Of a stretch of DNA of 64,000 nucleotides, positions 17,387-45,917 are shown in pieces. Position 1 is the stretch's first letter, and each line of letters opens with the position of its first letter. The notes below the pieces were generated by a model. It ran no database searches. It worked only from the letters and a program-made list of their open reading frames with translations, and was not told where the DNA came from. Origin of the DNA: Flectonema sp. DT1601 (Eukaryota); assembly GCA_964019425.1 (NCBI GenBank), contig OZ025787.1, positions 1,116,001-1,180,000 of the forward strand, written 5' to 3'. The position numbers and the translations under genes were made by a program.

Positions 17387-17421
<35 letters not shown>

Positions 17422-17815: not shown

Positions 17816-17851
<36 letters not shown>

Positions 17852-18245: not shown

Positions 18246-20417
18246 CTCTCTTGTAGAGAGAAGCTGGAATCCAAGGAACTATGCGACGCCTATAAGGGAT
18301 TCAAGGAGAAGGCACTAACGACACAAGGCCTGCCGGACCTCGAAACCATCGCCACACGGAGGAGGCCCCTACTGAAAGTGATTCCAGTCCCCCTCCTGCA
18401 CCACTTCGCGAAGGCGCTGAAACTGACGTCAGATCTGGTAGCAGACTTAAATAGCGACCAAGCCTGGCGGCTGTTATTAATGCTCCCGGTCTGTACCCTG
18501 CGAAGAGTCCGTAGAAAGGGGGGCCGGATGACTGAATCAGCCTTGAACGGGGCGATAGATGACCTGACAGCATGGTCAAAGGGCAACTTCACGGAACTAT
18601 GGTCGGCGACCGGGACCGGGACCGCCAAGATTCAGACAAAAATGGCGCCGTCCCAGAAATCAAGAAATCGGAGGGCAACCGAGCTGGTAAGAGAAGGCCG
18701 CATATCGCAGGCGATATCAGCATTGAGCGCTCCACCGCCGGCAGAATACTCGGACGAAGTGCTGGAAAAACTAAGGACACTGCACCCGCCCAAGTCAGGA
18801 GAGTACCAGGAAGGCTCAGGGCCCGAATCTACAATAGACGAGGAGACGGTACTATCATGCCTGCGGTCCTTCCATAGAGGTTCGAGTGGGGGCCCCTCAG
18901 GTCTCACACCACAACAACTTAAAGATGCTGTTGATAGGGGGGAGGTCCCGGGCCTACTAGCCTCATTGACAAAGGTAGTGAAGCTCCTGGCAAACGGCCG
19001 AGCCCCAAGCACAATCGCCCCTCTCATGGCAGGAGCAAACCTGACCGCCATAGAGAAAGAAGGCAGACCAGGAGAATACCGGCCGATCGCAGTAGGTGAA
19101 ACCTGGAGGAGACTAACAGCGAAACACCTCTGTCGCCAATTCGCACGTGAGGCCAAAGTCCACCTTATGCAAGTATGCCAACTCGGAGTAGCGGTACCAG
19201 GGGGGACAGAAGCGGCCATCCATGCACTCCACGAGTTCAGATTCAAAAACCTCGGGGCGGAGAAGGTCTTCGTCAAAATAGACTTCTCGAACGCCTTCAA
19301 CTGCGTCCACCGTGGGGCGTTCATCGAGGCTACGACGGGCTCACAGCTCGAGAACTGGGTACGGTGGTGTTACGGTAAACAGTCGTGGTTACTATTCGGC
19401 AAACACGCCCTGTCCTCCGCTGAGGGTGCACAACAGGGAGACCCTTTGGGACCGATGCTGTTCTCATTAGCCTTGAAACCGGTGCTCTTGGAGGTGTTGA
19501 AAACCAGCCCGGAGTTCGCCTGTTTTTATTTGGACGACGGACTGATCGCGGGCTCATTAGAACAAGTGGATCAAGCCCTACGCACCCTAGACAGGGAATC
19601 GGCAAAGATAGGACTGTGCCTCAGGCCCGCCAAGTGCCAGACGTATGTCTTACAGGAGAGCCCAGTCGAGCTCCCGTCCGGCTGGGGATTGGAAGGCATG
19701 GGGAGCCCCCTCTTTAACGGGGACTTCCTAGGTTCACCTTTCGGATCGATCACACATGTCCGGAACTTCGTAACGCAGAAGGTCAGCAAGCTACAGGACA
19801 AGGCCCGTCTGATCGCAGGCATGGAAGACAGACAGGCAGCCCTAGTCCTACTTAGACAGTGCTCGGGCTTTTGCGAAGTCACACACCTGATGCGGAGCTG
19901 CTCATTCGATATAACGGAACAGCTGCAGATGGTAGATGAAGTCGTCAGGGGGACTGCCTCAGCGGTACTAGGACAGGGTCTGGAAGGCTCGAGATGGATC
20001 CAGGCGCAGCTTCCCACGCGGATGGGCGGACTCGGCCTCCGTTCATGCACAAAACACAGGAATGCCGCCCTTTTAGGTTCGCTAGGACTAGTAAAGGATA
20101 CCTGCGTAAGCCTTTGGCGAGACTACAAATGTGACCTAAGTTCGCAGATCCAAGAAACGCTGAACAAAGAACTGCCGGATAGCCTAAAGCTGGAGGGCAC
20201 ATATAACCCACAACGCTTCACCTCAGCCAGGCTAGACCAGGTCACACGGGACAAGCTGCTGGAGGAAGCGACGCCAACCGACAAGAAGAGACTCCTGTCT
20301 CTAACGATGCCGAAAGCGAGTGCGTGGCTACAGTGCCCGGATGAGGAGTGCTACATAGGCTCCGACATATTCCGTATCGCCTGCGGACTACGACTCGGGA
20401 CAGCTTTGTTCTCAGAA
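18246..20417 (+). mobile_element. CRE-clade non-LTR retrotransposon, reverse transcriptase region, 5'-truncated
   Basis: YRPIAVGE, QLGV, KIDFSNAFN, GAQQGDPLGPMLF, FYLDDG, GGLGL, GLRLG. The frame is open from 18246. Confidence 0.95.
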
Positions 20418-20721
20418 GTAATTGTCCTTCCATGCTTTGCACCTGTCGAAATAATAAAACTTAAAAACTACACACGCACCAATAACAAGCGATTACACTA
20501 GAACGCGCGATTGCAAGAAAACGTGAGTGTGAGAGAAAGAAGTGATCGAGCTGTATAAAGAATTTCTTTTTGAAAAAAAAATAGAAGGCTAAAGAATATA
20601 TAAAAATGTCTGCTGTTTCGTTCATTTTTCCAACTTCGGAATCATACACTTTTCTGTCTGATTCCTTTGATTATTTCTTTCCGGTGCTAAGCTTGGTGGA
20701 AAATTACCTGAATGAATTCTA
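20418..20721. mobile_element. ~300-bp AT-rich MITE-like insertion between RT and RLE
   Basis: Imperfect TIR: gtaattgtccttccatgctttgcacctg versus the reverse complement of 20681-20707 (gtaattttccaccaagcttagcaccgg). Removing 304 bp restores the frame. Confidence 0.75.
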
Positions 20722-21510
20722 GATGAGGCCTGCCGTGCTTGCAAAAAAACACAGGACGCGTACGGATACCACGCCTCTGTCTGTATCGACGGCGGGGATA
20801 TCCACCGCAGACACGATAAAGTGAGGGAAGAATTTATCGGCATCTGTCGTTCGGCGGGCTTGGCAACGATGAGGGAACCCAAATACCTCGTCGGATACAA
20901 CAAGCAGCGACCTGCAGACTGGTACTGCCCGCAAGGATTGAGCGAGGGAGTCGGACGGGCGTTTGACGTGACGATCGTCAACCCAGGGGCATCCAGGAAC
21001 TACAACAAGCCGGGCCAAGCAGCCAGTGATGCGGAAGCCGCAAAGTCAGGCAAGTACTCGACCTTATGTGCAAAGTACGGAATAAATTTTTCACCGATTG
21101 CCCTTGAAGTCTACGGAGGTTTAGGCCCACAAGCAGTGAGGACGCTAAGCCGACTGTCGCAGCTGCGCGCCCTTGTCACGACGTTACCCCTACGAGAAGT
21201 TGCAGGCCTGTATGCCAGGAGGGTCTCAACCCAAGTGGTGGTCTGCACTGCAGAAGCCCTCAGAGCAAGAGGAGCATCGCTCACACACCAAGCGACGTCA
21301 TCCGCAAGCAAGCTGCACACGCCACATACGCCGTCGGCACCGAACACATCCGATGACGTATCAATGTCCGCTTTGTCCCCACAACCTATGGATCCAACTC
21401 CAGACCCAACCACACCGCTTGCCGGAGGGAACGACTTGCCAGCGGAACCCGAGAGGGATTCAGCTACTAGGCCGACTACGAAGCCAGAGGAACACAGTAC
21501 GAACCTAGCA
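20722..21510 (+). mobile_element. CRE element Zn knuckle, restriction-like endonuclease and start of the Pro-rich linker
   Basis: CRAC...HASVC, RRHD, RPAD, FDVTIV, EAAKSGKY, FSPIALEVYGG. Confidence 0.93.
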
Positions 21511-22940
21511 TGTTCCGGTATGTGTTGCGTCTCTGTTATTTGTTTGTTTCAACTCAATTGGTTCATCTCAGGTTTTAGAAGTCTTCGTCCTGTTCGTTGG
21601 GAAGGGCCTGAATCAAAAGTTCACTGCCCCTATTCCTCTCCCAAATTTCTATTCAGCTTGCCACATGACTGTGTGACATTATTGCTACATTGTAGCTCCC
21701 CTACAAAAACCTTATTTTTTGCAGTTGTCTTTTGGTTGTAGCAACTTTTATTTTATGCTTTTCTAATGTCCCAAAGTTGGTTTATTTTACTTTTTTTTTC
21801 TGCAAGGGAACAGTCCAAAGCATAAGTCCGAACAGCCCTAAGGCCAGTGAACGCACTGATTGTTAGGTATTGTATTCCAGGGAAAGTTTGGTTTGTATAC
21901 TTTATTTTTATTTTATTTTATTTAATTTGTTAAAAGAAAACAGGTAACTTTACATGAGCATCGGCTCGAACGGCTCTGGCGAAGCGAGTGAACGAGTCTG
22001 ATTGCTGAGTATTGTATTCTGTTTTCTTGTTCTTTTTTTTAATTTATTTCAAACAGGGCAACAGGGGGAAAGTTTGGTTTGTATCCCCTGGGTGTTTAGC
22101 GTCACCTGTTGAGGTGTAATGTATTCTGTTTACTTCTATCCCTTTGTTTGTTTTTTTTTTTTTTTTTTTTTATTTCAAACAGGACAGCAGGGGGAAAGTT
22201 TGTTTCGTACCCCCCGGGTGCTTAGCGTCACCCTCCATGCGATGCTTGCGCAGGGAGAGCCAAGGGTCGAGAACCCTGGAGATTACCTTTGTTTCTTTTT
22301 GTGACTGGATTGCAGTGGCGCAACCCATCACCCCACCTGTTGGTATCTTTTTATTTTTTTTATTTAAAGAAAAAAGCAGGCTAAGTCGCCTGAGCTGGCA
22401 TCGCCAGAATATTTAACTTCACATGGCAATGTCAGCTCGTGAAGGGATCCAGTTGGATCAAAGGTTTTCTCCCCCCCCACTCTATTTATCGTCATTGGTG
22501 CGCACCTTCGAACAGGAAGGCCAACACTGACGGAATTTTTTACTTCTCTTCCCAGGGTTGAACCTTGGGAAAAAAACAAACAATAAACACAGTGTAGACA
22601 AACACCCGCCGGACATCTGCAGAGCAGCGATCGATGTCGATGTCTTCGTTGTCGAACTTCCTGGCGTTTATGTTTTTGTTTTTAACAACAGCACAACACC
22701 AACTAACAGGTTTGTCCCATTGCCCGTTCTTTCTTGTTTCCCTTTGCCGCCGGAAGAACGAAGGTCGACGGAGGTCCGAAGCATTGCTTGCGATGATGTT
22801 CCGGTATGTGTTGCGTCTCTGTTATTTGTTTGTTTCAACTCAATTGGTTCATCTCAGGTTTTAGAAGTCTTCGTCCTGTTCGTTGGGAAGGGCCTGAATC
22901 AAAAGTTCACTGCCCCTATTCCTCTCCCAAATTTCTATTC
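21511..22940 (+). mobile_element. Family D: 1286-bp unit plus a partial unit, head-to-tail, inserted in the CRE ORF
   Basis: 21511-21655 recurs at 22797-22941; inverted copies at 27513-29488. Removing it rejoins the CRE frame (NLA-TPLHKAEP). Confidence 0.88.
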
Positions 22941-23767
22941 ACTCCACTACACAAAGCCGAACCCACACCAGCCGCAGGCTACTCCTCTTTGCCAGCTGGC
23001 ACACAGAAGAACACTTCGACCGATTCAGCCACCGCTGCCCCGACCCCTCCTGGCCCAACCATATCTACCGGAGGTTTAGAGGTTCCGGAGTCCGGGTCGC
23101 GTCTGTCATCCAGTCCCCAAGGAGTGTCCACCGACCGCACGTTAGCTGTAGACAATGCCTCCGTGCCTGCTGGAGATCGATCCGAAGTCACCTTAGCCAC
23201 CGCTGCCCCTGCTCCTCCTGGCCCAACCATATCTACTGCCGGAGGTTTAGAGGTTCCGGAGTCCGGGTCACGTCTGTCATCCAGCCCCCAAGGAGTGTCC
23301 ACCGACCGCACGTTAGCTGTAGACAATGCCTCCGTGCCTTCTGGAGATCGATCCGAAGCCACCTTAGCCACCGCTGCCCCTGCTCCTCCTGGCCCAACCA
23401 TATCTATTGCCGGAGGTTTAGAGGTGCCGAAGTCCGGGTCGCGCCTATCATCCAGCCCCCAAGGAGTGTCCACCGACCGCACGTTAGCTGTAGACAATGC
23501 CTCCGTGCCTTCTGGAGATCGATCCGAAGCCGCCTTAGCCACCGCTGCCCCTGCACCTCCTGGCCCAACCATACCTATTGCCGGAGGTTTAGAGATATCG
23601 GAGTCTAGGCTGAGCCCGTCAAGTAGCCCACGTTTGCATGGGGAACCCGCACTAGCTGTAGACAACCTCCCTTCGACAGCGTCCCTTGGACGGATTGAAA
23701 TAACCCCGACTGTTCCAGCCACCGCCTACCCTATTCTTCCAGGCCCATCCATTTCTACCAGAGGTCG
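22941..23767 (+). repeat. CRE ORF continuation: 168-180-bp (56-60 aa) Pro/Ala/Ser-rich coding repeats
   Basis: gccaccgc anchors at 23028, 23196, 23367, 23538 and 23718; peptide ATAAPAPPGPTIS.AGGLEVPESG. Confidence 0.9.
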
Positions 23768-25900
23768 GAGTTGAATTTCCAGGTGAGATTTGGACTGTTA
23801 GCTTTTGGCTAAGGCCCTCCCTGAAGAGCAAGAACAAAAAAACTACTCACACCTGAAGAAAACATACACAAAGAACACACTGTAAGCTGTGTGTGTATTT
23901 TGTGTTTGTCACAACAGGAGAGAAAAGAAAGAATGTCAAGGTTGGTCACCTTGCCTATCAACGCACAACATTGGTGGTCTCTACTAGACCCTGAGTGATC
24001 CCACTGGATCTCTCATCGTTCATAGTACCCTGTGTGAAGTTATAAAATCAAAGGTAAACTATGAACTACAAATGACTTAGCCTGTTATTATAATGCCACA
24101 GGCAGGCCCTGCATTCAGCAACTATCCAGCAGTGCTTGGATGTCCTGATCTTCTTCTAAAAAAAAGAAAGAAAAACAAAACTGTAGCTGGGATCACTCAG
24201 GATCAACAGACTACCAATGCTACCTGTTGTACTTGCTCACTATGGGGGGTGATGCCAAACACCCAGAAGTACTTAACTACTTTCCTTCTTGCTGCCCAGG
24301 AGTTTCTGACCAGAACTAATAGAAAATAAAAAGTAGATGGGAAACAATAAAAAGTAAAATGGATATAACTGAAGTTAAACAAGACAAATGAGGTAACAGA
24401 CCAGAACAGATAGAGAATAAAAATAAAAGATATAGGCAAGAATGATTGTAGTGAAAGATTACAAATAAAAAAAATGCAAGATCAACACATGATCAAGATA
24501 CACCAGCAGCTAACAAACAACATAAAATTGAAGATCAGTTGCCAGAGTATTTCAACCATGGTAGAATACTCGCCCCTCTGGCAGGGATTATCCCAGACTT
24601 GTCCTTTAATCTAGTTGGACACCATGGCTTACAACCCTTCCAGAGGGAAGCACCATTATGACTTCTATTTTTTTTCTTCAAGAAAATCATAAGGTGGGAA
24701 CAAAGAAAAATGCTAAGAGGAACCCCCTATTAACACCTAAGACATCTAAACTGCAGCCCAGCCTATGCCCAATGCACTAACAGGTCATTCCCTCACACTC
24801 AGATCAAAAAATCAAAGTTCAGAGTGCATCTTAGCGTGAATGAGAGAATTTCCTCCCGCTTATTTTGAACAAAAGGGATAGGAGAAGGGATAGAAAACGA
24901 ACATAAAAATAAAATTCTAAGTGAGAAACACTTAGCAGAAACACTTAGCAGCTTTTAAGGAGCTGAAAAGCAAAAAAAAAATCTAAGTGAGAAACACTTA
25001 GTAGAAACAATTTGTAGCTAATTAAGCTGAAAATAAAAAAATAAAAAATTTCTAAGTGAGAAATACTTAGCAACTTTTAGAACAAATATTTCAGTAAATA
25101 ACCTGTAATGATTAAACCATTACAAGTTTGATGCCAAAACTGACAAGGACTGAGTTGAATTTCCAGGTGAGATTTGGACTGTTAGCTTTTGGCTAAGGCC
25201 CTCCCTGAAGAGCAAGAACAAAAAAACTACTCACACCTGAAGAAAACATACACAAAGAACACACTGTAAGCTGTGTGTGTATTTTGTGTTTGTCACAACA
25301 GGAGAGAAAAGAAAGAATGTCAAGGTTGGTCACCTTGCCTATCAACGCACAACATTGGTGGTCTCTACTAGACCCTGAGTGATCCCACTGGATCTCTCAT
25401 CGTTCATAGTACCCTGTGTGAAGTTATAAAATCAAAGGTAAACTATGAACTACAAATGACTTAGCCTGTTATTATAATGCCACAGGCAGGCCCTGCATTC
25501 AGCAACTATCCAGCAGTGCTTGGATGTCCTGATCTTCTTCTAAAAAAAAGAAAGAAAAACAAAACTGTAGCTGGGATCACTCAGGATCAACAGACTACCA
25601 ATGCTACCTGTTGTACTTGCTCACTATGGGGGGTGATGCCAAACACCCAGAAGTACTTAACTACTTTCCTTCTTGCTGCCCAGGAGTTTCTGACCAGAAC
25701 TAATAGAAAATAAAAAGTAGATGGGAAATAATAAAAAGTAAAATGGATATAACTGAAGTTAAACAAGACAAATGAGGTAACAGACCAGAACAGATAGAGA
25801 ATAAAAATAAAAGATATAGGCAAGAATGATTGTAGTGAAAGATTACAAATAAAAAAAATGCAAGATCAACACATGATCAAGATACACCAGCAGCTAACAA
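23768..25900 (-). mobile_element. Family R1: 1384-bp unit plus a partial unit, inserted in the CRE ORF
   Basis: R1 termini at 23773 and 25157. The flanks rejoin as STRGR-EVSKAELRPSISPQ, collinear with the coding repeat. No TSD seen. Confidence 0.9.
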
Positions 25901-27512
25901 AGAAGTATCGAAAGCTGAGCTGAGGCCATCAATTAGTCCGCAGGAATTGCCCGTTGAACCAGCATCGGATGTAGGCGATCCTCCTTCGCCAGATGGTAGA
26001 CAGAAGGAACCCACACTAAACGATCCAGCCACCGCTGTCCCTTCTCCTTCGGGCCCAACCGCACCAATTGCTGGAGGTTTGGGGATATCGGAGTCCGGTC
26101 TGAGACCGCATGGTGCGCCGGGAGGACCCGCACTAGCCGCCACAATTCCATTCTTGCCAGCTGATCCGGTCGGAGCCCCAACCGCAACATCCACCGGCCA
26201 CTATTAGACCATAACAAACCGCGGGGGAAAAGACCTAGAATCTAACCTGCACACTGGCCCGATCGCAACATACGTTGGTGAGACACCGTGGAAGGAAGCC
26301 TCCCTGTCTAGGCCAGACTCTGCCGCCCTACACCCTCCTGGCCCAACTATATCTTTCGCCGGAGGACAGCAGGAACCGGAGTCGGTCCCGGGAAGACCCC
26401 TGAGTCCACAGAAGGAGCCATCACTCACGTGGAGTTTGGACCCTACTGCGGACTGTATGCCACGGAACGCATAAAACACCACGCTGGAAACGCCAAGGGA
26501 ACTGTTATACCCCGAGATGGACGCGGACCCGACCGAAATAGTGATGGAATCTTTGATGCACGCAGACGAGGTCCCGATCCACGTAGGCCTAAGACACCTC
26601 GTAATGCCGATCACCGACCAACAGTACATGAACCCCGGGAGTTCAGCACCAGCGCGGGTATCCATACTACCCAAGGCTCTCTTCCTGTTGCCGGTAGTGA
26701 ATGATCCAGGAGGTGCCCCGGAGAACGCGCAGTCTTCGAACCCCGAGTGTCGAGAACTAGAACGGGACGCCGGACAGGACGAGACATCGGTTACGGCAGC
26801 AGCGAAAGATACAGGTGGGGTCCCAGAGTACCTACATCCTCCCTTCGTACCATTTGAAGCAGGTCTGGAGGGGATTCAGAATCTCGGGAACTCCTGCTAT
26901 ATGAACGCAGCGCTCCAGTGCCTATGCAAGGGCATGCCTCTACCAGATTGCAGCAAATCGTCTGAACACCTGGCAGCCTGTGTCTTATGCAATCTGCGGG
27001 AACTGAAGCGTTCAGGGTCTGGTTCCGCTGCGAAGAAACTATGGGAGTGGGTGAAACCACGCTGCGGACCAGGACAATCAGAAGCTGAACACGCACTGTC
27101 AGAGCTGCTCGAAGCGATCGAGGAGATGGGAGCACCACCAGTCGACTTCATGTCCATTGTAACGCAGACCCGCACGTGTCGAAGACACGTGTGAAGACAC
27201 ACACACGAAACGGAATAGAACACCCATCCTCCGACTGAACCCTGGCCAAACGCCAGCCGCAGCCTGTGCTACAACGTCGACCAGCCCGGCGGACTTTGTC
27301 TGCCCGATTTGCAAGTCGAGCTCAGCGACGGTCACTACATCGGTAGACGAGTTAGCCCGATCACTGTTCTTTGGATTCAACGAGGGACATTTCGGAGATC
27401 CCGAAGCCGAAGAAAAGGTCAGCATACCGGCATCCTTCGTAGACACTTCGAGCCGCCTGTACGCCCTGACTGGAGTGATCCAACACACCAGACACAGCGA
27501 GTCTTCGGGTCA
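25901..27512 (+). pseudogene. CRE ORF continuation: Pro-rich repeats followed by a ubiquitin-specific protease (peptidase C19) domain
   Basis: Cys box GIQNLGNSCYMNAALQCL (Cys codon at 26895), GQSEAEHALSELLEAIEE, CPIC, His box YALTGVIQHTRHSESSG-ca|. In-frame stops at 26205 and 26472; frameshift near 27185. Confidence 0.88.
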
Positions 27513-29488: not shown

Positions 29489-29881
29489 TTTCGATAAGTG
29501 GGAAGTAACGGACTGGGAGCTTTTGGCTCCTGCCCTATTCCCGACGTAAACTTTCTTTTTATTTTTTTTTTTTTTTTAACAGGCCCAAAGGGCGACAATG
29601 ATGGTTGCTGACCAAGGAATAATATTCAAATGAATTTTCGTTTCAAAGAAACGAACAGAATTAAGAGAGAGGTAGAGAAAAAAAAAAAAAAAAAAAAAAA
29701 GAAAGAATAGAAAAAAAATATGAAGAGGAAATAATCAAACATGAAAAAAAAAAAAAAAAATAAAATATAAATAAAAAACGTTGTATGAAAAAGGAAAAAA
29801 AGAAAAAAAAAAGACCAGAAAAGGAAAGAGAAAATGAAAAGGTATAATATTATTGTGGGGATATGAGGATAGCAGGGAGAT

Positions 29882-29919
<38 letters not shown>

Positions 29920-30172: not shown

Positions 30173-30205
<33 letters not shown>

Positions 30206-30597: not shown

Positions 30598-30628
<31 letters not shown>

Positions 30629-31408: not shown

Positions 31409-31445
<37 letters not shown>

Positions 31446-33868: not shown

Positions 33869-34274
33869 GTTTTTTTTTTTTTTTTTTTTATTATTCATTT
33901 ACATTATTATTTTTTTTTTTTTTTTTAAATTAATAATCACATTTTGTTCAAAAATATTTCATATTAGAGTAAAAGAAAAAGAAAAAAAGAAATAAGAGAA
34001 AAAAAAAAAAAAAAAAAACCATTGCTGGCCCCCTCACCACTCATAGAGGATGAGGAGGCCAGTAAGGCGTCACTCAAATCTATGCCAAGCCTTGGGAACT
34101 TGGATTGGGGTTTAGACCATTTATAATTAACAATTAACAATTAACCTGATTAACGTTATGATCTGACGGACATAAACATATCGATAAAATAATACAAACA
34201 AAAACGAACAATAAATAATAAATAAGCTAAAAAACTAACTAAACAAAGTGATGTGAAAGTAAGGAAAAAGAGAA

Positions 34275-37200
34275 TTACAAGGGGGTGGAGTCACCGTGAA
34301 CGTCATCAGCAGAACATCTCCTTCGATTGTAACGATATCTTGATGGAGGGGTTCGTTTTTTCAGAGTTGAACGCTCAGACTTTCTCGGCGGAGTTTCATT
34401 TTCCTCATGTTCTTCTGTGTCTGGCGGACTCAAACCTTCTGCCCATGAAGCTAATTGGAACTTCAGGGCCGCAATTTGAGACCGTGCCAAGGCGAGTTGA
34501 GCATTTAAATCGCTCGCCAGTCCCGTTAACATCATGGATTGCTCAAGCTGCTCTGCGTGAGTTGTACACCGTTGGTGATTCAGCTCCGAGAGGCGAAGTT
34601 GGGCATCCAGAAGTTGTTCTGAGAGCTCTGCCGCTTTCTCGTTTGTTTCGAGAGAGTCATCTACTGCTCGACAGTAGTTCTCGAGTAAGTCAATCCTACC
34701 CTCGGACCATTGTCTCGCAATAGGTGTATTCTCTTTAACGGAGATAACGTGACTCTCTTGTCGTAAAATCTTGGTCGGCGTGCGGTCGAGAGCTTCACTC
34801 TGCGGCATTGTCGGAGGAATTGAGGCTAGAGGACAAAGAGGGGTGATATAATTAAGGGTAGGGATAAGGGGTTTAATAAGAGGAGTAAAAAGACTACTCG
34901 TAGTTGTAAAGAGCGAGAGGTAGTTCTTTGCTATCTTCATCATAGCAACAGATTCATACAGAACGGGGGTTCGGGGGGAAACTTGTTGACTAAAGTGGGT
35001 CATACGGGGACGCGCGGCACGCAAACTCTCGACCTCCTGTTGAGTATAGAAAAGTCTTATTTTACTTTCTCTTTCCTCATTACATTTGGTCTCCAATTCG
35101 TTCGACAGAAGAACAAACCTTTGATGGTAATTAAAGAGCGCCATTTCCGATAGGTCTGCTCTCTGAGTCAGATTTGCGAGCTCACGTTTCCTGTAATCTT
35201 CCACTAAGTCATATTGTCGAACTAGTGCAGAAAGAGAAGTCTTCGATTCATCGCGTTCTGCTGTTAACCGTTGAATTACTCCTTCCAGAAGTTCATATTC
35301 TTTTCTATCTTTTTCAATAATTAAAACAGGGGGCGCAGGAGGAAGTGAGGATGGATCCTGGTTGGTAGCTTTGATCTCAACAGGTAATCCATTTAGTAAC
35401 TGCTTGTCTTTCTCGAGGGAGGCTGACATCGCATTAAAGTAAAATAAAAATAGAACATAAAAAATTCGTTCTTTCATTTGCTCTAATTCGTTTTCTAAAA
35501 TCTGGCATTTCAAGGAAAGTTTCAGCCTTAATTTTCCTTCTTTTTTTTTGTACAAGGGGGTTTGAGAACCCATGTCAGATTGAGTTCTTATCACTATAGC
35601 GAAATCAGCAGGAAGTGTTTGCGATCCCGTTGACATGAGTTCAGGTGGGGGAGTCTGGAAAGAGATGGAAGAAATAGAAGAGAATGACAAGGAGAGTCCA
35701 GTGAGCTCATCCTCATCTAACAAAACAGAAGGGGCCGGGGAGGAAGAACCATTGGCAATAAGTAGAATAGAAAGAGCCGATGCGTAACAAGTTTGCCAGA
35801 TAAAACATTTCTCAAGCCACGATCTTTCAATGGTGAGCTTTTCGATCGTTTTCAGTTTTGTTACTTTGTGGATTTTGACTTCTTCCACAGGGAAGATTTC
35901 TTTACCATCTTTTATAAAACTTGCAGTGGCAGGTTCTTCTTTAATGCTGCGCATTAGTGGTCTTGAATGCCACGTGGGGAGGTTCCTCGTCTGGAACAGA
36001 ACATATGAGCACTGTCTGGCGATTCTGGTGCATTCACAAAATAAAGCTTTTGTTGGTGCTAAAGGTGAACCGATGTGACGTGTCCAGATGTTCAGCTGGT
36101 CCATGCAGATGTTTCCTCGTACGCCAACTTCAATAGTAAAAATGTTACAGTCGAAGCCATTAGCGATGATCGAGTCTCTTAGCTTTAGGTATTTCTTTTC
36201 CTTTAAGACATGAGAGGTTTCGAAACGATCTTCATTTGGACACGTCAGCTCCAGAATCAGTGCTCTTTTCGCAAAAAAAGAATAAATAAAAATGTCTGGT
36301 CTTAGAGAGGACGAGACATGGCACACTTCAAGAGGAACAATTAGGCGGTTATCACCGACATCGTCGAGGATGACCCAATCATTCGCTAGTGAAAGTTCGC
36401 CTGTCTCTTTAGAAATTCTTTCTAGGGGTTTATTTTCCCCTGTTTTTAAAAAAGTTTGAGAGGGAGGCGGGAGGTTTTCTTTTCTTTTGTTGGCTTTTAT
36501 TATCAACTCTTCCAAGAAGATAACAATGCGTTTTAGAACGCTGTCGTGACGCCACGTGAACCTCCCTTGTGTTAAAGAGACAGGACAGCCTGTTAAGACA
36601 TGCCTGAGGGTAGGATTCACTTTGCCACACAAAACACAATTTTGGTCCACATTGGTGATGTTCCACCTCTTTAAATTATCTTGTGAGGGGAGGGTGTTTG
36701 TAACCGCTTTCAGTTGAAATGAGATATAGGCAGGATTTCCCTCCCTAAGTACCTTATTCCAGGTGAAATCGTTTATCATACATTTAGACCACTCCTTCCA
36801 CTGACCTTGGACTTGTAATTTATTCAAAGAGTTCAGTAGTTCATCTGTGGCTTCCACTTCAAAACGCTTAAGGAGATCGGGGCGAGTAGTACGTAGATCG
36901 CGCAATCGGTGACCAAGACCAGCTGATTGCTTCGCAAGAGAACGGTAAGAAAAAAACTTAATAAGGCGCTCCCACTCAGCAGAAGCTGAAAACTTTTTCG
37001 ACCAGTTGGACGATTTCTCCATAATAACATTGTAGACACCGTGCATGTCAGAGTCCTGTGAGGATCTGAGGATGTCTAGTTTAATTGATTGCGCTTGTTT
37101 ATATAGCGTCACAACTCTTTTGTGTCTGAGACCAACAGTGTTCTTTGAACCGGTAAAAAGGATGACTGTGTTCGCAGAGCGGACAAATCCCCACCATTTC

Positions 37201-39401
37201 TTCAAAAAAGGTTTAATAATTTTGTCCATTTTTTTGGCAAAAGGGAGAGATAAGTCATGGATCATTAAACTCCATGTTAACCTTGACAATAACAAGTGTT
37301 GGACAGACCAAGCCTTCTGAGACCCATATAGTGGCATGGCGTCGACTTTTTTTAAAAAATTCCTGGTAAAAGTGGTCAGGCGCTCTCGCAATTTCTGTTC
37401 TTTGGCGTTCGGCTCAAACCAACGCCCGAGGTATTTGAACTCTCCAGCTTCCTGGAGATTCGTAATCGGAACATTGTTAATCTTCAGGTCCGGGTTAGCT
37501 GGTTTCCCTTGTACAAAGCTGTGGGCAATGCATTTCTGGGGTTTCGCTTTCATACCACGAGACCAGGAAAGAAACTGTTCGAGCGACTTGATTAGCAATT
37601 TTGCCCCCGCCTTTGATGACGTGGTAAGTTGTAAATCATCAGCAAAAGCTGCAACTAATAGTTGGAGGGATTTATTGTTAAACTCGTAGGCTTCCTGTTG
37701 ATGAACTGCTAAGGAAAAGAGCAGTAGTTGGAATACCAAATTAAAAAGGGTTGGGGAGGAAACGCAGCCTTGAAAGACACCAACTTCAAAAGGGATAGTG
37801 GGCGTCAGGCCTTCTCCAACTCTGATTTGGACGCGCATGGAGGAATAATACCTTTTATAGAAACCGATTATTCTTTCGTGAATTCCGAAATATTTTAAAG
37901 CAAAGAAAATTAATTGATGTTTGACTGAGCCGAAAGCATCTGCCAAATCCACCCAGACAATTGTTAGGTTTTTCCGGAGAGCTTTCACTTCTTTAAAAAT
38001 CTCTGAGGTGATCGTGGCATGTTCGATACATCCAGAGACACCTTTCCTAAAGCCTTTTTGAAAATTAAATTTAGAAAGAGTGTGGTTTGCGACGGCTTCC
38101 TGAATAACCGTATTAAAAATTTTCCCGTCGCAGTTGCCCACAGCTATCGGTCTCGTTTTCGAGATGTCTTTCCCATCGGAGTTGGGCTTTGGGAGCATTG
38201 TTACAAATGCTAAGCCCCAACTATCCGGATAGGCCTTGAGTTCGAAAATTCTCTTTAATACCTTGTAAAGTGCTTCCATAAAAGTTGGGACCTTTTTCCA
38301 TACAACATAAGGTATGCAATTGGGACCAGGGGCACATTTGTTTTTTTTCTTTGATAAGAGAATACCAAACTGTTCGAAGCTCGGGAACTGGATATCATCC
38401 ATTGTCTTGTAGTCAGACTTAGGTAAAAAAGAGGGATGGGTGAAATCAGTTTTTTTTTTTTCATTGTCACAATAGTTGTTTTTAAAATGTTCAATTATTT
38501 TTTCCTCTGGAATATCAAGGGAGGGGGGTTGAGGATCTTCTTTTTGGAGTTCTTCTTTTATGGCAGTAAACGGATTTTGACGAAATTTATCTTGTAATTT
38601 TTTGAATAAATTTTTCTTTTCTAAATTCCGATACATTCGGAAAATCCTTTTCATTCTCGTTCTTGCCTCTTTCCATTTGACAGCGTTCTCTATAGAAGGC
38701 CCAGATTTGCGGAGCTCCTGTCTTAGCTGTTTCATTTCCAGACGACATTCAAGTTTTTCTTGGTCGAGGATGACCTCTTCCCTTGATTTCTGTTTGCGGG
38801 GTAAATTCCGCTTTGTTTCTTCAAAGAAACCGCTACATATTTGATAAACCGTTTTGAGTAGTTTATCAAGTTGGTCGGCAGGTTTTGAAGAATTTTCTGT
38901 TTCGACGGTGAAAGTTTGAAGTTTTTCTGCAGCAGAAACGTCGATGTCCTTCCATTCAGTTCCAAAAGATCGGAATTTGAGACGAGACGGGTGTAACGGG
39001 GTAAAAGTGGGTGTTGTAGAGTTATAAGGAACGAAAGCTGTTTGTGAAGTTTTAAAATCTACAGATTCTCCTACAAAGGGAGGTTCCAGGTCTGAATTAT
39101 TCCCTGTGAGGGGAGACAGAGGTGTACCTTTACATGTACCGTTAACACAGTGTTTCGCTCTCGTAGCGATACTTTTGAAAAGCTTACCACATTCTGGACA
39201 AGGTAAGTGGTAACAATCTTTAACTTGGGAGTGGGTAGATGGGGGAAAACGTGACTTATAGTCCTTAAATTCCTTACTAAACTTACAGTTACGTCTAAAA
39301 TGCGCAACTGGACCTTTGAGGTATGTCTCAAAACATAAAGGACATTTGGCTACTAAAGTTTTATCCCCATCCAGAGCCGATCTCGAAATAGCCTCTTGCA
39401 A
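34275..39401 (-). CDS. HERO-like RLE-type non-LTR retrotransposon polyprotein (1708 aa, uninterrupted)
   Basis: N-terminal CPLC/CPEC Zn fingers; RT motifs RPIAV, QKGF, VDLADAFGSV, GVFQG, AFADD, KYLG; knuckle CVLC..LRHVLTGC; RFTWRHD, LRPD, ELTCP, KEKKY, IEVGVRG. The ORF opens at TTG with no nearby in-frame ATG. Confidence 0.95.
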   Translation of the reverse strand: MQEAISRSALDGDKTLVAKCPLCFETYLKGPVAHFRRNCKFSKEFKDYKSRFPPSTHSQVKDCYHLPCPECGKLFKSIATRAKHCVNGTCKGTPLSPLTGNNSDLEPPFVGESVDFKTSQTAFVPYNSTTPTFTPLHPSRLKFRSFGTEWKDIDVSAAEKLQTFTVETENSSKPADQLDKLLKTVYQICSGFFEETKRNLPRKQKSREEVILDQEKLECRLEMKQLRQELRKSGPSIENAVKWKEARTRMKRIFRMYRNLEKKNLFKKLQDKFRQNPFTAIKEELQKEDPQPPSLDIPEEKIIEHFKNNYCDNEKKKTDFTHPSFLPKSDYKTMDDIQFPSFEQFGILLSKKKNKCAPGPNCIPYVVWKKVPTFMEALYKVLKRIFELKAYPDSWGLAFVTMLPKPNSDGKDISKTRPIAVGNCDGKIFNTVIQEAVANHTLSKFNFQKGFRKGVSGCIEHATITSEIFKEVKALRKNLTIVWVDLADAFGSVKHQLIFFALKYFGIHERIIGFYKRYYSSMRVQIRVGEGLTPTIPFEVGVFQGCVSSPTLFNLVFQLLLFSLAVHQQEAYEFNNKSLQLLVAAFADDLQLTTSSKAGAKLLIKSLEQFLSWSRGMKAKPQKCIAHSFVQGKPANPDLKINNVPITNLQEAGEFKYLGRWFEPNAKEQKLRERLTTFTRNFLKKVDAMPLYGSQKAWSVQHLLLSRLTWSLMIHDLSLPFAKKMDKIIKPFLKKWWGFVRSANTVILFTGSKNTVGLRHKRVVTLYKQAQSIKLDILRSSQDSDMHGVYNVIMEKSSNWSKKFSASAEWERLIKFFSYRSLAKQSAGLGHRLRDLRTTRPDLLKRFEVEATDELLNSLNKLQVQGQWKEWSKCMINDFTWNKVLREGNPAYISFQLKAVTNTLPSQDNLKRWNITNVDQNCVLCGKVNPTLRHVLTGCPVSLTQGRFTWRHDSVLKRIVIFLEELIIKANKRKENLPPPSQTFLKTGENKPLERISKETGELSLANDWVILDDVGDNRLIVPLEVCHVSSSLRPDIFIYSFFAKRALILELTCPNEDRFETSHVLKEKKYLKLRDSIIANGFDCNIFTIEVGVRGNICMDQLNIWTRHIGSPLAPTKALFCECTRIARQCSYVLFQTRNLPTWHSRPLMRSIKEEPATASFIKDGKEIFPVEEVKIHKVTKLKTIEKLTIERSWLEKCFIWQTCYASALSILLIANGSSSPAPSVLLDEDELTGLSLSFSSISSISFQTPPPELMSTGSQTLPADFAIVIRTQSDMGSQTPLYKKKEGKLRLKLSLKCQILENELEQMKERIFYVLFLFYFNAMSASLEKDKQLLNGLPVEIKATNQDPSSLPPAPPVLIIEKDRKEYELLEGVIQRLTAERDESKTSLSALVRQYDLVEDYRKRELANLTQRADLSEMALFNYHQRFVLLSNELETKCNEERESKIRLFYTQQEVESLRAARPRMTHFSQQVSPRTPVLYESVAMMKIAKNYLSLFTTTSSLFTPLIKPLIPTLNYITPLCPLASIPPTMPQSEALDRTPTKILRQESHVISVKENTPIARQWSEGRIDLLENYCRAVDDSLETNEKAAELSEQLLDAQLRLSELNHQRCTTHAEQLEQSMMLTGLASDLNAQLALARSQIAALKFQLASWAEGLSPPDTEEHEENETPPRKSERSTLKKRTPPSRYRYNRRRCSADDVHGDSTPL

Positions 39402-39844
39402 AGCCTCGGGGGCTGGGTTGGCTGAGAGATGGTTGCCAGTATCTTTATGACACCGCCGGCCCGGTGTTTCTTTTTTTTTTTGTTGTGAAGTAGCAATAAT
39501 AAAAAAAAAAAAAAATAGAAAAGAGAATGGCTCAGAAACAATATCGATGAGTTAAGATCTTTTTTTTTAAACTATTCCTTTTTTTTTAATTTCGGGCAGC
39601 TAACCCTAGAGTTTTTTTTGGTAAATACTGTTTAAAGGAAAACGAGCTACGCTCTAAAACAGAAAAATCGGAGTAACTACTTGTTTATAATATATATTTT
39701 GATAAATAATGTGGTTGGCAAATGAATGCCGAAGAGGCAACTTGAGAAAAGCAATTGGATGAGAAGAAACATTGGGTCTTATAAAGCAAAGTAGATAGAG
39801 GGGCCTAAAAAGACCGCAGAGTGGATAGCTCCACAAAAGGCTGA

Positions 39845-40238
39845 ATTTCGATAAGTGGGAAGTAACGGACTGGGAGCTTTTGGCTCCTGCCCTATTCCCG
39901 ACGTAAACTTTCTTTTTATTTTTTTTTTTTTTTTAACAGGCCCAAAGGGCGACAATGATGGTTGCTGACCAAGGAATAATATTCAAATGAATTTTCGTTT
40001 CAAAGAAACGAACAGAATTAAGAGAGAGGTAGAGAAAAAAAAAAAAAAAAAAAAAAAGAAAGAATAGAAAAAAAATATGAAGAGGAAATAATCAAACATG
40101 AAAAAAAAAAAAAAAAATAAAATATAAATAAAAAACGTTGTATGAAAAAGGAAAAAAAGAAAAAAAAAAGACCAGAAAAGGAAAGAGAAAATGAAAAGGT
40201 ATAATATTATTGTGGGGATATGAGGATAGCAGGGAGAT

Positions 40239-40276
<38 letters not shown>

Positions 40277-40529
40277 TTATTATTTAAAAAAAGGAAACAA
40301 TCAGTTTAGCGTCTCGATCAGGACGGAAAATAGAAATTAATCGACATAGTCGATCGATAGAAAAAAAACAATGATAACATTGTTTATTCCTTTTTTTTTT
40401 TTTTTTTTTTATTCTTTTTATTTATTTTTAAAGAAAAAACAATCAGTTTAGCGTCCTGACCAGGACGGAAAATTGAAAGTGATCCACATAGTCGATCGAT
40501 AGAAAAAAGACAATGATAACATTGTTTAT

Positions 40530-40562
<33 letters not shown>

Positions 40563-40954
40563 CTTTTAATTATTTTAAAGAAAAAACAATCAGTTTAGCG
40601 TCTTGACCAGGACGGAAAATAGAAAGTGATCGACATAGTCGATCGATAAAAAACAATGATAACATTGTTTATTCCTTTTTTTTTTCTTTTTTTTTTATTC
40701 TTTTTATTTATTTTTAAAGAAAAAACAATCAGTTTAGCGTCCTGACCAGGACGGAAAATAGAAAGTAATCGACATAGTCGATCGATAAAAAAAAAACAAT
40801 GATAACATTGTTTATTCCTTTTTTTTTTCTTTTTTTTTATTCTTTTTATTTATTTTTAAAGAAAAAACAATCAGTTTAGCGTCCTGACCAGGACGGAAAA
40901 TTGAAAGTGATCGACATAGTCGATCGATAAAAAAACAATGATAACATTGTTTAT

Positions 40955-40985
<31 letters not shown>

Positions 40986-41759
40986 CCTTTTAATTATTTT
41001 TTAAAGAAAAAACAATCAGTTTAGCGTCTTGACCAGGACGGAAAATAGAAAGTGATCGACATAGTCGATCGATAAAAAACAATGATAACATTGTTTATTC
41101 TTTTTTTTTTTTTTTTTTTTTTTTAATCCTTTTTATTATTTTAAAGAAAAAACAATCAGTTTAGCGTCTTGACCAGGACGGAAAATAGAAAGTGATCGAC
41201 ATAGTCGATCGATAAAAAAACAATGATAACATTGTTTATTCTTTTTTTTTTTTTTTTTTTAAATTCTTTTTATTTATTTTTAAAGAAAAAAAACGGAAAA
41301 TAAAAATTAGTCGACAAAGTCGAACGATAAAAAAAAACAATGATAACATTGTTTATTCTTTTTTTTTTTGTTTTTTTTTATATTCTTTTTTATTAATTTT
41401 GAAAAAAAAACAATCAGTTTAGCGTCTTGACCAGGACGGAAAATAGAAAGTAATCGACATAGTCGATCGATAAAAAAAACAATGATAACATTGTTTACTC
41501 TTTTTTTTTTTTTTTTTTAAATTCTTTTTATTTTAAAAAGAAAAAAAACGGAAAATAGAAATTAGTCAACAAAGTCGAACGATAAAAAAAAAAACAATGA
41601 TAACATTGTTTATTCTTTTTTTTTTATTTTTTTTTTTATATTCTTTTTTATTAATTTTGAAAAAAAAAACAATCAGTTTAGCGTCTTGACCAGGACGGAA
41701 AATAGAAAGTGATCGACATAGTCGATCGATAAAAAAAAAACAATGATAACATTGTTTAT

Positions 41760-41796
<37 letters not shown>

Positions 41797-44700
41797 CTTT
41801 TTTTTTTTTTAAAGAAAAAACAATCAGTTTAGCGTCTTGACCAGGACGGAAAATAGAAAGTAATCGACATAGTCGATCGATAAAAAAAACAATGATAACA
41901 TTGTTTATTCTTTTTTTTTTTTTTTTTAAATCTTTTTATTTATTTTTTAAAAAGAAAAAAAAAAAACGGAAAATAGAAATTAGTCAACAACGTCGAACGA
42001 TAAAAAAAAAAACAATGATAACATTGTTTATTCTTTTTTTTTTTATTTTTTTTTGTATTCTTTTTTATTAATTTTGAAAAAAAAACAATCAGTTTTGCGT
42101 CTTGACCAGGACGGAAAATAGAAAGTGATCGACATAGTCGATCGATAAAAAAACAATGATAACATTGTTTATTCTTTTTTTTTTTTTTTTTTTTTTTAAA
42201 TCCTTTTTATTATTTTTAAAGAAAAAACAATCAGTTTAGCGTCTTGACCAGGACGAAAAATAGAAAGTGATCGACATAGTCGATCGATAAAAAAACAATG
42301 ATAACATTGTTTATTCTTTTTTTTTTTTTTCTTCTTTTTTTTAAATCCTTCTTTTTATTTTTTAAAGAAAAAACAATCAGTTTAGCGTCTTGACCAGGAC
42401 GGAAAATAGAAAGTAATCGACATAGTCGATCGATAAAATAAAAACAATGATAACATTGTTTATTCCTTTTTTTTTTTTTTTTATTCTTTTTATTTATTTT
42501 TAAAGAAAAAAACGGAAAATAGAAAGTAATCGACATAGTCGATCGATAAAAAAACAATGATAACATTGTTTATTCTTTTTTTTTTTTTTTTTTTTTTAAA
42601 TTCTTTTTATTTATTTTTTAAGAAAAAAACGGAGAATAGAAATTAGTCGACAAAGTCGAACGATAAAAAAACAATGATAACATTGTTTATTCTTTTTTTT
42701 ATTTTTTTTTTTATATTCTTTTTTATTAATTTTGAAAAAAAAAAAAAAACAATCAGTTTAGCGTCTTGACCAGGACGGAAAATAGAAAGTAATCGACATA
42801 GTCGATCGATAAAAATACAATGATAACATTGTTTAATCTTTTATAATTTTTTATTTTTTTTTTTGTTTTAAAAAAAAAAAAAAAAAACAAGCGGAATTGA
42901 TCATAATGGGTGGTAGGGGTTGTTATAACTTCGTTTGAAAATTCTTCTTTTTTGATTTCTTTTTTTTTTTCTTTTTACAGGAGTTAAGATCACTTTCAGG
43001 AGACAACACATTAACAAGAGCAGCAAGCAGAGTTGACACTATCAATTCAAATTTGAAATACCGGGAATTAATTTACAAGGAGGTATCTCAAGTGACTTGG
43101 TATCTCTAGCGTGTCGGTATCTCTGGAGTGCTGGTATCTCGTATGTGCGTTGGTATCTCATGAGTGATGGTATCTCTTGTGCATTAGAGAAACGAAAAAG
43201 AATGTCATGACCATGACGGAAGAATTGAGGAATTGAGTTAACATGTTCAATTTAACTTATTTAAACTTTTTTTTTTTTTTTAACAGACCGTAACTATTTG
43301 AAAATAAAATGTAGATGGGAAACAGTGAAAAGTAAAATGGATGATAAAATTAAATGAGAAATATGACATAACAGACCAGATAGAGAGTATTAAAAGGAAA
43401 TTGAAAAGGAAAAGAGAAACTAGGTTAACACTTATTTAAAATTAAGACCGGTTAGTCAGTTTAAGGTCTTGACTAGGACCAACAAAAAAGAAAGAAAAAA
43501 AAATTTAACGATCAAGCTGAGCTGATCTTGTTTTTATTACAAATAGGGGAGCGGGAGGGATGGAAGGAATAGAGGAAAAAAAAAAGAAAAGGTTGATCAA
43601 TTGGATCTGATCGTCGAGAAGAGGAAATTTTTTTAAAGGTTGATCGGTATAGCCGATCGTTGAGAAAAATAAACAGATATAAATACAATCAGTTTAAATT
43701 AAAAAAAGAAAAAAAGATTAACGATCAAGCTGAGCTGATCTTGTTTTTATTACAAATAGGGGAGCGGGAGGGATGGAAGGAATAGAGGAAAAAAAAAGAA
43801 AAGGTTGATCAATTGGATCTGATCGTCGAGAAGAAGAAATTATTTTAAAGGTTGATCGGTATAGCCGATCGTCGAGAAAAATAAACAGATATAAATACAA
43901 TCAGTTTAAATTAAAAAAAGAAAAAAAGATTAACGATCAAGCTGAGCTGATCTTGTTTTTATTTAAAATTAGGGGAGCGGGAGGGATGGAAGGAATAAAG
44001 GAAAAAAAAAAAAAAAAAAAGGTCGATCAATTGGATCTGATCGTCGAGAAGAAGAAAACAATTATTTATAAAAAAAAAATGGTCGGTATAGCCGATCGTT
44101 GAGAAAAGAACAGATATAAATACAATCGGTTTTGGTGATCGACGAGTGGAGCGATCACTTGACAAGAAGGAAAAAGAAAGGACCGATTAATTGGGGCTTT
44201 GATTGTATTCCCAAGGCATGTTTTTTTTTTTTTTTTTTTTATTATTCATTTACATTATTATTTTTTTTTTTTTTTTTTAAATTAATAATCACATTTTGTT
44301 CAAAAATATTTCATATTAGAGTAAAAGAAAAAGAAAAAAAGAAATAAGAGAAAAAAAAAAAAAAAAAAAACCATTGCTGGCCCCCTCACCACTCATAGAG
44401 GATGAGGAGGCCAGTAAGGCGTCACTCAAATCTATGCCAAGCCTTGGGAACTTGGATTGGGGTTTAGACCATTTATAATTAACAATTAACAATTAACCTG
44501 ATTAACGTTATGATCTGACGGACATAAACATATCGATAAAATAATACAAACAAAAACGAACAATAAATAATAAATAAGCTAAAAAACTAACTAAACAAAG
44601 TGATGTGAAAGTAAGGAAAAAGAGAATTACAAGGGGGTGGAGTCACCGTGAACGTCATCAGCAGAACATCTCCTTCGATTGTAACGATATCTTGATGGAG

Positions 44701-45713
44701 GGGTTCGTTTTTTCAGAGTTGAACGCTCAGACTTTCTCGGCGGAGTTTCATTTTCCTCATGTTCTTCTGTGTCTGGCGGACTCAAACCTTCTGCCCATGA
44801 AGCTAATTGGAACTTCAGGGCCGCAATTTGAGACCGTGCCAAGGCGAGTTGAGCATTTAAATCGCTCGCCAGTCCCGTTAACATCATGGATTGCTCAAGC
44901 TGCTCTGCGTGAGTTGTACACCGTTGGTGATTCAGCTCCGAGAGGCGAAGTTGGGCATCCAGAAGTTGTTCTGAGAGCTCTGCCGCTTTCTCGTTTGTTT
45001 CGAGAGAGTCATCTACTGCTCGACAGTAGTTCTCGAGTAAGTCAATCCTACCCTCGGACCATTGTCTCGCAATAGGTGTATTCTCTTTAACGGAGATAAC
45101 GTGACTCTCTTGTCGTAAAATCTTGGTCGGCGTGCGGTCGAGAGCTTCACTCTGCGGCATTGTCGGAGGAATTGAGGCTAGAGGACAAAGAGGGGTGATA
45201 TAATTAAGGGTAGGGATAAGGGGTTTAATAAGAGGAGTAAAAAGACTACTCGTAGTTGTAAAGAGCGAGAGGTAGTTCTTTGCTATCTTCATCATAGCAA
45301 CAGATTCATACAGAACGGGGGTTCGGGGGGAAACTTGTTGACTAAAGTGGGTCATACGGGGACGCGCGGCACGCAAACTCTCGACCTCCTGTTGAGTATA
45401 GAAAAGTCTTATTTTACTTTCTCTTTCCTCATTACATTTGGTCTCCAATTCGTTCGACAGAAGAACAAACCTTTGATGGTAATTAAAGAGCGCCATTTCC
45501 GATAGGTCTGCTCTCTGAGTCAGATTTGCGAGCTCACGTTTCCTGTAATCTTCCACTAAGTCATATTGTCGAACTAGTGCAGAAAGAGAAGTCTTCGATT
45601 CATCGCGTTCTGCTGTTAACCGTTGAATTACTCCTTCCAGAAGTTCATATTCTTTTCTATCTTTTTCAATAATTAAAACAGGGGGCGCAGGAGGAAGTGA
45701 GGATGGATCCTGG
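39845..45713 (-). repeat. Second, truncated tandem copy of the ~10.35-kb unit of E plus HERO
   Basis: Offset of 10351-10357 bp from copy 1; ORF 44627-45713 matches the C-terminal part of the 1708-aa protein. Confidence 0.93.
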
Positions 45714-45917
45714 AAGTCACCCAACTGAGTCCCTGTGTCGCCCTGTACTTGAGACGAGAACAACCTTCCTCCGGCGCACCGAAATCAAGATGGAAACCAG
45801 CACCCTTTGACAGGAAACCAACCTTCTACTACGGAGTTGCGGAAGGCAGATCCCCAGGAGTGTACACCACGTGGGAGGAAACGAAGAGGGAGGTGTCCAA
45901 CTATAGGGGCGCCGTCC
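45713..45917 (+). pseudogene. Displaced CRE ORF piece: end of the USP domain plus an RNase H1 N-terminal hybrid-binding (Cauli_VI) domain
   Basis: Translates EVTQLSPCVALYLRREQPSSGAPKSRWKPAPFDRKPTFYYGVAEGRSPGVYTTWEETKREVSNYRGAVQ. Absent from the ORF track. Confidence 0.8.

Follow-up and report, generated by a model that had tools for sequence, protein, structure and literature searches.

The window analysed here (64,000 nucleotides of contig OZ025787.1 from Flectonema sp. DT1601) is eukaryotic DNA, dense in repeats, and between positions 18246 and 45917 it holds the interrupted remains of a retrotransposon that lacks long terminal repeats (non-LTR). When four insertions are taken out, five plus-strand pieces (A to E, Table 1) are left, which encode in sequential order a reverse transcriptase (RT), a CCHC zinc knuckle with a restriction-like endonuclease (RLE), proline-rich repeats, a ubiquitin-specific protease (USP) and the hybrid-binding domain (HBD) of RNase H1. 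This GC-rich series had been proposed in a first-pass annotation and is upheld by Pfam, motif and reading-frame evidence; every coordinate given there for the nested insertions holds, and the three Pfam families that it named for a profile check (RVT_1, UCH and Cauli_VI) were found in pieces A, D and E.

Table 1. Pieces of the interrupted element and the insertions that separate them
Feature	Positions	Strand	Content	Evidence or remarks
Piece A	18246..20417	+	5'-truncated open reading frame (ORF) body, reverse transcriptase and thumb	RVT_1 E 2.9e-18
Insertion 1	20418..20721	.	304 bp, AT-rich, non-coding	GC 0.35
Piece B	20722..21510	+	CCHC knuckle, restriction-like endonuclease (RHD...E...RPAD...D), start of low-complexity linker	
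Insertion 2	21511..22940	.	repeat with 145-bp terminal direct repeats	97-98% copies at 27518-29488
Piece C	22941..23767	+	tandem 57-aa Pro/Ser/Thr-rich repeats	in frame with B
Insertion 3	23768..25900	.	repeat with ~755-bp terminal direct repeats	97-99.7% copies at 6426, 45924, 50340
Piece D	25901..27512	+	linker end and, from 26868 on, the USP; site of the two stops and the frameshift	UCH E 6.8e-7
Insertion 4	27513..45712	-	18.2-kb composite: copies of the insertion-2 repeat and an RT element in which 5,875 bp are duplicated	
Piece E	45713..45917	+	last USP strand-like stretch, then truncated HBD (45827-45913)	Cauli_VI E 7.4e-11; GC3 0.60
Insertion 5	45918..47579	.	insertion-3 family	cuts the HBD

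Structure of the interrupted element

Once insertions 1 to 3 are removed, a single frame runs free of stops for 1,364 codons and spans three junctions. It is followed by stops at 26205 and 26472 and by a frameshift near 27182, which locates the two stops and the one frameshift for which this copy had already been called dead. Junction 1, around insertion 1, is collinear with the intact relative P0060 without indel. The borders of insertions 2 to 4 coincide with the ends of 97-99.9% identical copies elsewhere in the window, which define them independently. No second copy of insertion 1 was found in the window, and its sequence occurs in contigs of sequencing run X1. This insertion starts with GTAA and, if taken one base longer, ends with CTAG; its reading as an intron was rejected because the frame would be lost if the 305 nt from GT to AG were spliced out. 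A non-standard code explaining the two stops was likewise discarded, since the standard code leaves open an AT-rich ORF of 1,758 codons in the window as well as the host ORFs.

The GC content of pieces A to E is 0.56-0.60, against 0.34-0.42 in the inserts, and GC at third codon positions (GC3) is 0.49-0.62 in the element pieces, compared with 0.30-0.32 for host ORFs and 0.40 for the RT ORF of insertion 4. The 57-aa proline-rich repeat (3.4 copies of 171 bp with 94% matches), which had been described on both sides of an insertion called R1, indeed persists in diverged form beyond insertion 3. Piece A aligns with residues 552-1280 of P0060 (60.5% identity, 730 aa) and piece B with the same protein over 184 aa (59.8% identity). 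Both ends of the window copy are lost: piece A begins only at residue 552 of P0060, so that the N-terminus, which bears an OTU domain in relatives, is gone, and the remainder of the element downstream of insertion 5 was not found in the window. An array of a ~142-bp AT-rich unit, described below, adjoins the 5' break at 18245.

The USP of piece D retains the Cys box with the catalytic Cys, a QQD-like box, the zinc ribbon and half of the His box, with a UCH match above the cut-off. Its Cys box was aligned to USP8, the best PDB matches are USP8/4/15, and a profile built from the relatives alone matches the piece at 26868-27179 (E 1.7e-8) and 27187-27492 (E 3.1e-9). The His box claimed by the first-pass annotation is present in its first half; as for the rest, the 18.2-kb insertion at 27513 interrupts the codon expected for the catalytic His after its second base and, from alignment with relatives, ~25 USP codons including the Asp strand are absent at 27512/45713. 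A search of all six frames of the window did not recover this His-Asp strand. This loss bears only on the claim that the USP of the window copy is intact.

Piece E had been read as the end of the USP followed by the HBD. The HBD stands, with a Cauli_VI score of 42.6 bits against a cut-off of 21, in a form that covers profile positions 2-30 of 44 and is truncated at 45918 by the fifth insertion. That piece E continues piece D is something we infer from its strand, order and GC3 and from an anchored tail score, in which its first 15 residues, at the repeat border, come top of 62,533 stop-free 15-mers compared with the USP tails of two relatives in a register chosen by eye. Against this link, a profile of the relatives' USP tails leaves piece E outside its top 6. 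Mini-profiles of the USP tail and of the His strand gave no significant match.

Intact relatives of the element

Four families beyond the window contain single ORFs of 2,600-4,700 aa that join OTU, RT, RLE and USP, and these ORFs extend ~1,300-2,000 aa beyond the RLE. Briefly, the P0060/P0068 family, from ENA (2,840 aa, 35 cluster members), is composed of OTU, RT, RLE, USP and two Cauli_VI domains (HBD). The P0102/P0199/P0201 family, also from ENA (3,746-4,730 aa, 26 members), has OTU, RT and RLE followed by a diverged USP-like domain, proline-rich repeats, a second USP and two Cauli_VI domains. In Diplonema papillatum, the P0075/P0081/P0082 family (P0075, 3,163 aa; 38 members) and the P0235 family (2,636 aa; two members) both consist of OTU, RT, RLE, a long linker and a USP (UCH), without HBD. 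Given these cluster sizes, all four are considered as repeat families.

We are thus nearly certain that the architecture RT-RLE-USP belongs to one protein, as the first-pass annotation had proposed: it is found in uninterrupted, multi-copy ORFs of other families and not with the USP and HBD in separate host genes. The inclusion of the HBD holds for the P0060/P0068 and P0102 families, with two HBDs each, but not for the Diplonema families. What had been missed is the deletion in the His box, the fifth insertion in the HBD and the lost 5' end of the window copy, as well as the OTU of the intact relatives and the alternation of USP and OTU in one C-terminal slot.

The window copy and P0060 are 60% identical in RT and RLE and 29% identical in the USP, and in P0060 the UCH match spans the whole profile (1-254 of 254). 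Of the 47 listed members of the four families, 20 retain all three catalytic motifs of the USP (P0060, 5/15; P0102, 9/15; P0075, 5/15; P0235, 1/2), and 12 of these 20 also contain the RT (4, 3, 4 and 1, respectively), most of the other members being short fragments. Among the three groups of families the USPs are 17-29% identical with the Cys, His and Asp motifs still present, and the survival of the motifs at this level of identity points to selection on catalysis. The USP was found in five families, window included, from two or three genomes.

Comparison of P0235 with P0075 per 100 aa gives 50-68% identity in the RT-RLE region, 20-34% in the linker and 91-100% in residues 2001-2500. This pattern suggests that a USP module was exchanged between the two Diplonema families and may have spread recently. 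A chimeric assembly is another possible source of the near-identity; P0087, on a different contig, also holds the USP start.

The search of long proteins (1,268-3,620 aa) returned 56 matches, two of them with UCH, and a second, profile search, seeded with USP carriers, returned 1,183 matches, with UCH in three of the 120 listed, one of which was new. The USP region searched against long proteins retrieved its own cluster only (1/1,242 candidates). A metagenome scan for exact peptides gave no relative among 38 matches, and a metagenome scan by alignment, in which 503 of 600 matches were confirmed and 80 loci kept, gave USP, OTU or HBD in 0/80, most loci being contigs of 2-6 kb. Of 14 sequencing runs listed as matching the window, none contains half of its words and none is an RNA run. 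In the listed contigs of four of these runs the small inserted repeats are covered and the element pieces are neither covered nor bridged, which is no evidence either way; run X3 has low depth over a few element bins.

Two full Cauli_VI copies are found in each of P0060 and P0102, with PDB matches 3bsu and 1qhk, and the USP-HBD spacing is 21, 115 and 284 residues in three families. Near the HBD pair of both proteins a domain of ~115 aa is duplicated, with matches between the two copies of the same protein (E 6e-9 and 9e-7) and a weak match from one protein to the other (E 6e-4). Pfam and NCBIfam scans of the relatives gave no catalytic RNase H match for this domain, while its Atlas look-alikes are RNase H clusters at 0.85, taken as a lead only. 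The catalytic domain of RNase H1 is defined by the acidic residues D-E-D-D. It is absent from the window, where the element is cut off, and in the ~115-aa domain of the relatives these residues are, by eye, not evident. The simplest reading would be a captured RNase H1 in which the nuclease has decayed and hybrid binding has been kept. Inactive RNase H domains are kept as tethers in LTR elements (PMC5603734, PMC5348765).

Distribution of the cargo domains and clade assignment

Out of 162 proteins given, 20 with an RT-core match below 300 aa were dropped (including P0029, which has an OTU match), leaving 142 related RTs with a near-full RT core; P0001, P0003, P0009 and P0085-P0088 were left out as redundant. 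OTU and USP domains were called at E < 1e-3 with profiles built in this analysis. One or both are present in 13 of the 142, and all 13 carriers fall, together with the window and P0098, within one group of 15 rows (FastTree 94). After the RLE, four carriers have a USP, six an OTU (four of these six plus an N-terminal OTU) and two an extension without match, and the last one is cut short. At least 650 aa follow the RT core in 12 of the 14 relatives within the group, versus 5 of the 128 RTs outside it. A mixture-model tree computed for 39 of the 64 rows of a broader tree places the window as sister to P0060 (100/100). The USP carriers do not form a clade on the RT tree (three changes), and a constraint holding them together is not rejected (p-AU 0.158).

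The trees are built from the proteins retrieved, among which there is no named SLACS, CZAR, CRE1 or Cnl1 reference. The RLE motif of piece B has spacers of 2,9,3,8,19,10,15, three of which differ by one from the SLACS/CRE pattern (PMC12857005). No APE family was found in Pfam scans of the window and relatives, and Diplonema relatives (35% identical) bear the automatic NCBI name 'SLACS 132 kDa protein'. From the motif, the absence of APE and these names, membership of the CRE clade appears likely. The best PDB matches for the RT of the sister P0060 are R2 proteins, and an Atlas look-up of piece A returned unnamed RVT_1 clusters only.

The sister families with an OTU after the RLE are P0092, P0229, P0093, P0094, P0012 and P0006. 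These OTU domains are mostly missed by Pfam, and their Cys and His motifs look intact in aligned copies; the P0092 cluster has 187 members. Other cargo was seen in RTs outside this group of deubiquitinase (DUB) carriers, namely an N-terminal Ulp1 in P0020, a weak papain C1 match in P0015, an MLLE domain in P0139 and P0025, and a weak N-terminal HBD in P0054.

Comparison with described elements

Dualen/RandI, a non-LTR element with a Josephin-like protease, RLE and RNase H in a very long ORF, differs from the present element by its protease class and by an additional APE, none being detected here. Described members of the CRE clade (SLACS, CZAR, CRE1/2, Cnl1, MoTeR1, FoTeR) have, as here, a single ORF in which the RT is followed by a CCHC knuckle and the RLE, and internal repeat regions are known in some of them (PMC12278014). 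They end soon after the RLE (~1,150-1,200 aa for FoTeR), whereas the present elements have an N-terminal OTU and, after the RLE, USP and HBD. No protease or ubiquitin is mentioned in the available main text of PMC12857005 or PMC12278014; in the latter, a paper on the trypanosomatid mobilome, the words 'protease', 'peptidase' and 'ubiquitin' are all absent from that text.

NeSL, Utopia-1_TSP (Ulp1) and oomycete Utopia (RNase H) are likewise RLE non-LTR elements with a captured protease or RNase H (PMC4640811). However, the Ulp1 of NeSL and Utopia is N-terminal (PMC4640811) and of the SUMO-type C48, whereas C19/USP and OTU are found here and the USP follows the RLE. The RNase H of Utopia is catalytic, of archaeal type, and lies upstream of the RT, in contrast to the RNase H1 hybrid-binding domain of the present elements. 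Fusions with DUB or desumoylating enzymes, with alternate proteases per slot, also exist in Ginger1, Helitron and Mutator transposases carrying OTU or Ulp1 (PMC2836005). These belong to DNA transposons, and a Ginger1 transposase has OTU or Ulp1 but not both, whereas here a retrotransposon ORF carries two or three DUBs of two classes. A DNA transposase of Trichomonas carrying peptidase C19 (PMC2836005) was the only result of a literature search for this peptidase with a retrotransposon RT, which did not cover Repbase, Repbase Reports or subscription journals. A search for ubiquitin carboxyl-terminal hydrolase with a non-LTR retrotransposon ORF2, again without Repbase, found none. The Diplonema genome paper reports SLACS reverse transcriptases, and 'ubiquitin' is absent from its available main text (PMC10161547).

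Proposed function and alternatives

The window copy is the dead remnant of a non-LTR retrotransposon of the RLE type, likely from the CRE clade. We propose, at what we judge to be roughly even chances, that the DUBs encoded by its intact relatives would act in cis against host ubiquitin, likely as a counter-defence. It is established for RLE elements that the encoded protein attaches to its RNA and that the RT copies this RNA starting from a nick which the RLE makes in the target. The present protein would proceed in the same way, binding its RNA and priming reverse transcription at the RLE nick (target-primed reverse transcription). We infer from sequence that the USP and OTU would be active on ubiquitin; they would strip it from the element's own protein-RNA complex, which would escape host protein destruction and survive to integrate. 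In the families with HBDs, these and the apparently dead RNase H-like domains would serve to bind the RNA:cDNA hybrid, keeping the DUB at the integration intermediate. The DUB cargo as a whole would be accessory and exchangeable. Selection for deubiquitination is suggested because the motifs are kept at 17-29% identity, the slot is refilled by another DUB class and a near-identical module is shared. Such an action in cis would be the mirror of the TRIM41-mediated degradation of LINE-1 ORF2p, in human cells, where host ubiquitin ligases degrade this RT protein (PMC10716122). More tentatively, a CRE-like branch may hold across lineages an exchangeable DUB slot after the RLE (filled by a USP or an OTU, with as many as three DUBs in one ORF), in which some members would have turned USP, HBD and dead RNase H into a hybrid-targeted deubiquitinase serving counter-defence.

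Several points weigh against an action in cis. Under the profiles built here, 129 of the 142 related RTs have neither OTU nor USP, and the DUBs are therefore dispensable for the clade; the profiles themselves were built from members of the carrier group. P0098, which sits inside this group, ends after the RLE and has no cargo, and the branch with the 13 carriers on one side has moderate support in the 39-row tree (81/91, not starred). In the window copy, all three point lesions lie in piece D (post hoc p ~0.024), so the cargo may have decayed first, as would fit a dispensable one. The Diplonema families are without HBD, and the precedent for ubiquitin-based restriction, used here by analogy, is mammalian LINE-1 and not a protist CRE element.

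The main rival is an action in trans at the target, where DUBs tethered by the HBD to the RNA:cDNA hybrid would deubiquitinate histones, PCNA or repair factors, opening chromatin or steering repair to completed integration. It would agree with the neighbouring positions of USP and HBD in three families, with best PDB matches that are general nuclear and cytoplasmic USPs, and with the proposal of Bao et al. that the Ulp1 and OTU of transposons act on DNA-repair factors (PMC2836005). We nevertheless consider it unlikely, as the Diplonema families have the USP without the HBD and in six other rows an OTU occupies the same slot, also without HBD.

Neutral carriage and self-processing both appear less likely than an action in cis or in trans. 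If neutral, the USP and HBD would be decaying passengers taken from host genes by 3' transduction, which would suit the far greater divergence between the window and P0060 in the USP (29% identity) than in the RT (60%), the confinement of the point lesions of the window copy to the USP-bearing piece, and the differences between families in linker length and HBD position. Against this stand the in-frame fusion with intact catalytic motifs in four multi-copy families, the refilling of the slot by another DUB class in sister rows, and a 500-aa USP module that is 91-100% identical between two Diplonema families with 50-68% identity in RT-RLE; we hold this origin to be quite improbable. Slightly more doubtful still is that the cysteine proteases process the ORF of 2,600-4,700 aa into working parts, like viral papain-like proteases, ubiquitin not being their main substrate. 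Proteases do lie on both sides of the RT-RLE core with long low-complexity linkers between, and the N-terminal OTU weakly matches viral OTU domains in PDB (E 0.09-0.18). But the USP and OTU folds are isopeptidases that need a ubiquitin-like distal domain, the retained Zn-ribbon region of the USP fits ubiquitin binding, and processing would not call for as many as two or three proteases in one ORF. Finally, we see hardly any chance that the pieces in the window are unrelated (a CRE element of the ordinary kind that stops after the RLE, close to USP and RNase H1 fragments of separate host origin): although the uninterrupted copies examined come from other families, and the D-E join crosses 18 kb and a deletion with a USP-tail profile that did not single out piece E, the frame is open over three junctions, proline-rich repeats flank insertion 3, GC3 in all pieces departs from that of host ORFs, a sister family has the identical domain order and the anchored tail score favours piece E.

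Reports of Ulp1 and OTU proteases in transposons go back to at least 2010, without a tested role (PMC2836005). The elements described here are intact and multi-copy, two of their families belong to Diplonema papillatum, a model species among diplonemids, and two DUB classes flank the RT-RLE core, so that the role of the DUBs is directly testable by catalytic mutants. With them, USP joins the protein families carried by non-LTR retrotransposons, whose ORFs now reach ~4,700 aa, and they are a source of compact, highly diverged USP domains of ~250 aa. Conversely, annotated protist 'USP genes' can be retrotransposon tails and should be regarded with caution. If the DUBs do serve a retrotransposon counter-defence in cis, this would reveal a ubiquitin-based restriction in protists.

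Other elements and genes in the window

Insertion 4 contains an intact ORF of 1,758 codons with RVT_1 and zf-RVT at 34278-39551 on the minus strand. A 5,875-bp direct repeat, 99.9% identical, flanks it at 29488-35361 and 39845-45713 and includes its last 360 codons; the arrangement is that of a full copy with a partial one in tandem, and this RT element looks recently active. The two non-coding repeat families of insertions 2 and 3 (21511-22940; 23768-25900) have copies at 6426, 27518, 45918 and 50340. In runs X1-X3 their contigs loop back with periods of ~1,286 and ~1,335 bp, so tandem or circular forms of both may exist.

Arrays of the ~142-bp AT-rich unit, which has a conserved core, lie at 8596-18233, 29888-32500, 40245-42840 and 48830-56330, and a 17-mer of the unit was matched 103 times versus 0 expected. 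A 31-bp minisatellite with 68 copies is found at 4350-6420. An integrase (rve, E 1.9e-13) at 939-1991 (-) lies beside an ORF at 2343-3194 (+) that has no Pfam match and whose His...Asp...Gln/Cys pattern we take to recall an adenain-type protease; together they are possibly a Polinton-like remnant. The C-terminal remnant of a piggyBac-like transposase is present at 9818-10420 (+) (DDE_Tnp_1_7 E 0.0025, zf-Tnp_2). Finally, compact host genes with GC3 ~0.3 occupy 56758-63102 (+) and encode a leucine-rich repeat protein, a HAD hydrolase and a member of the tubulin-tyrosine ligase family.

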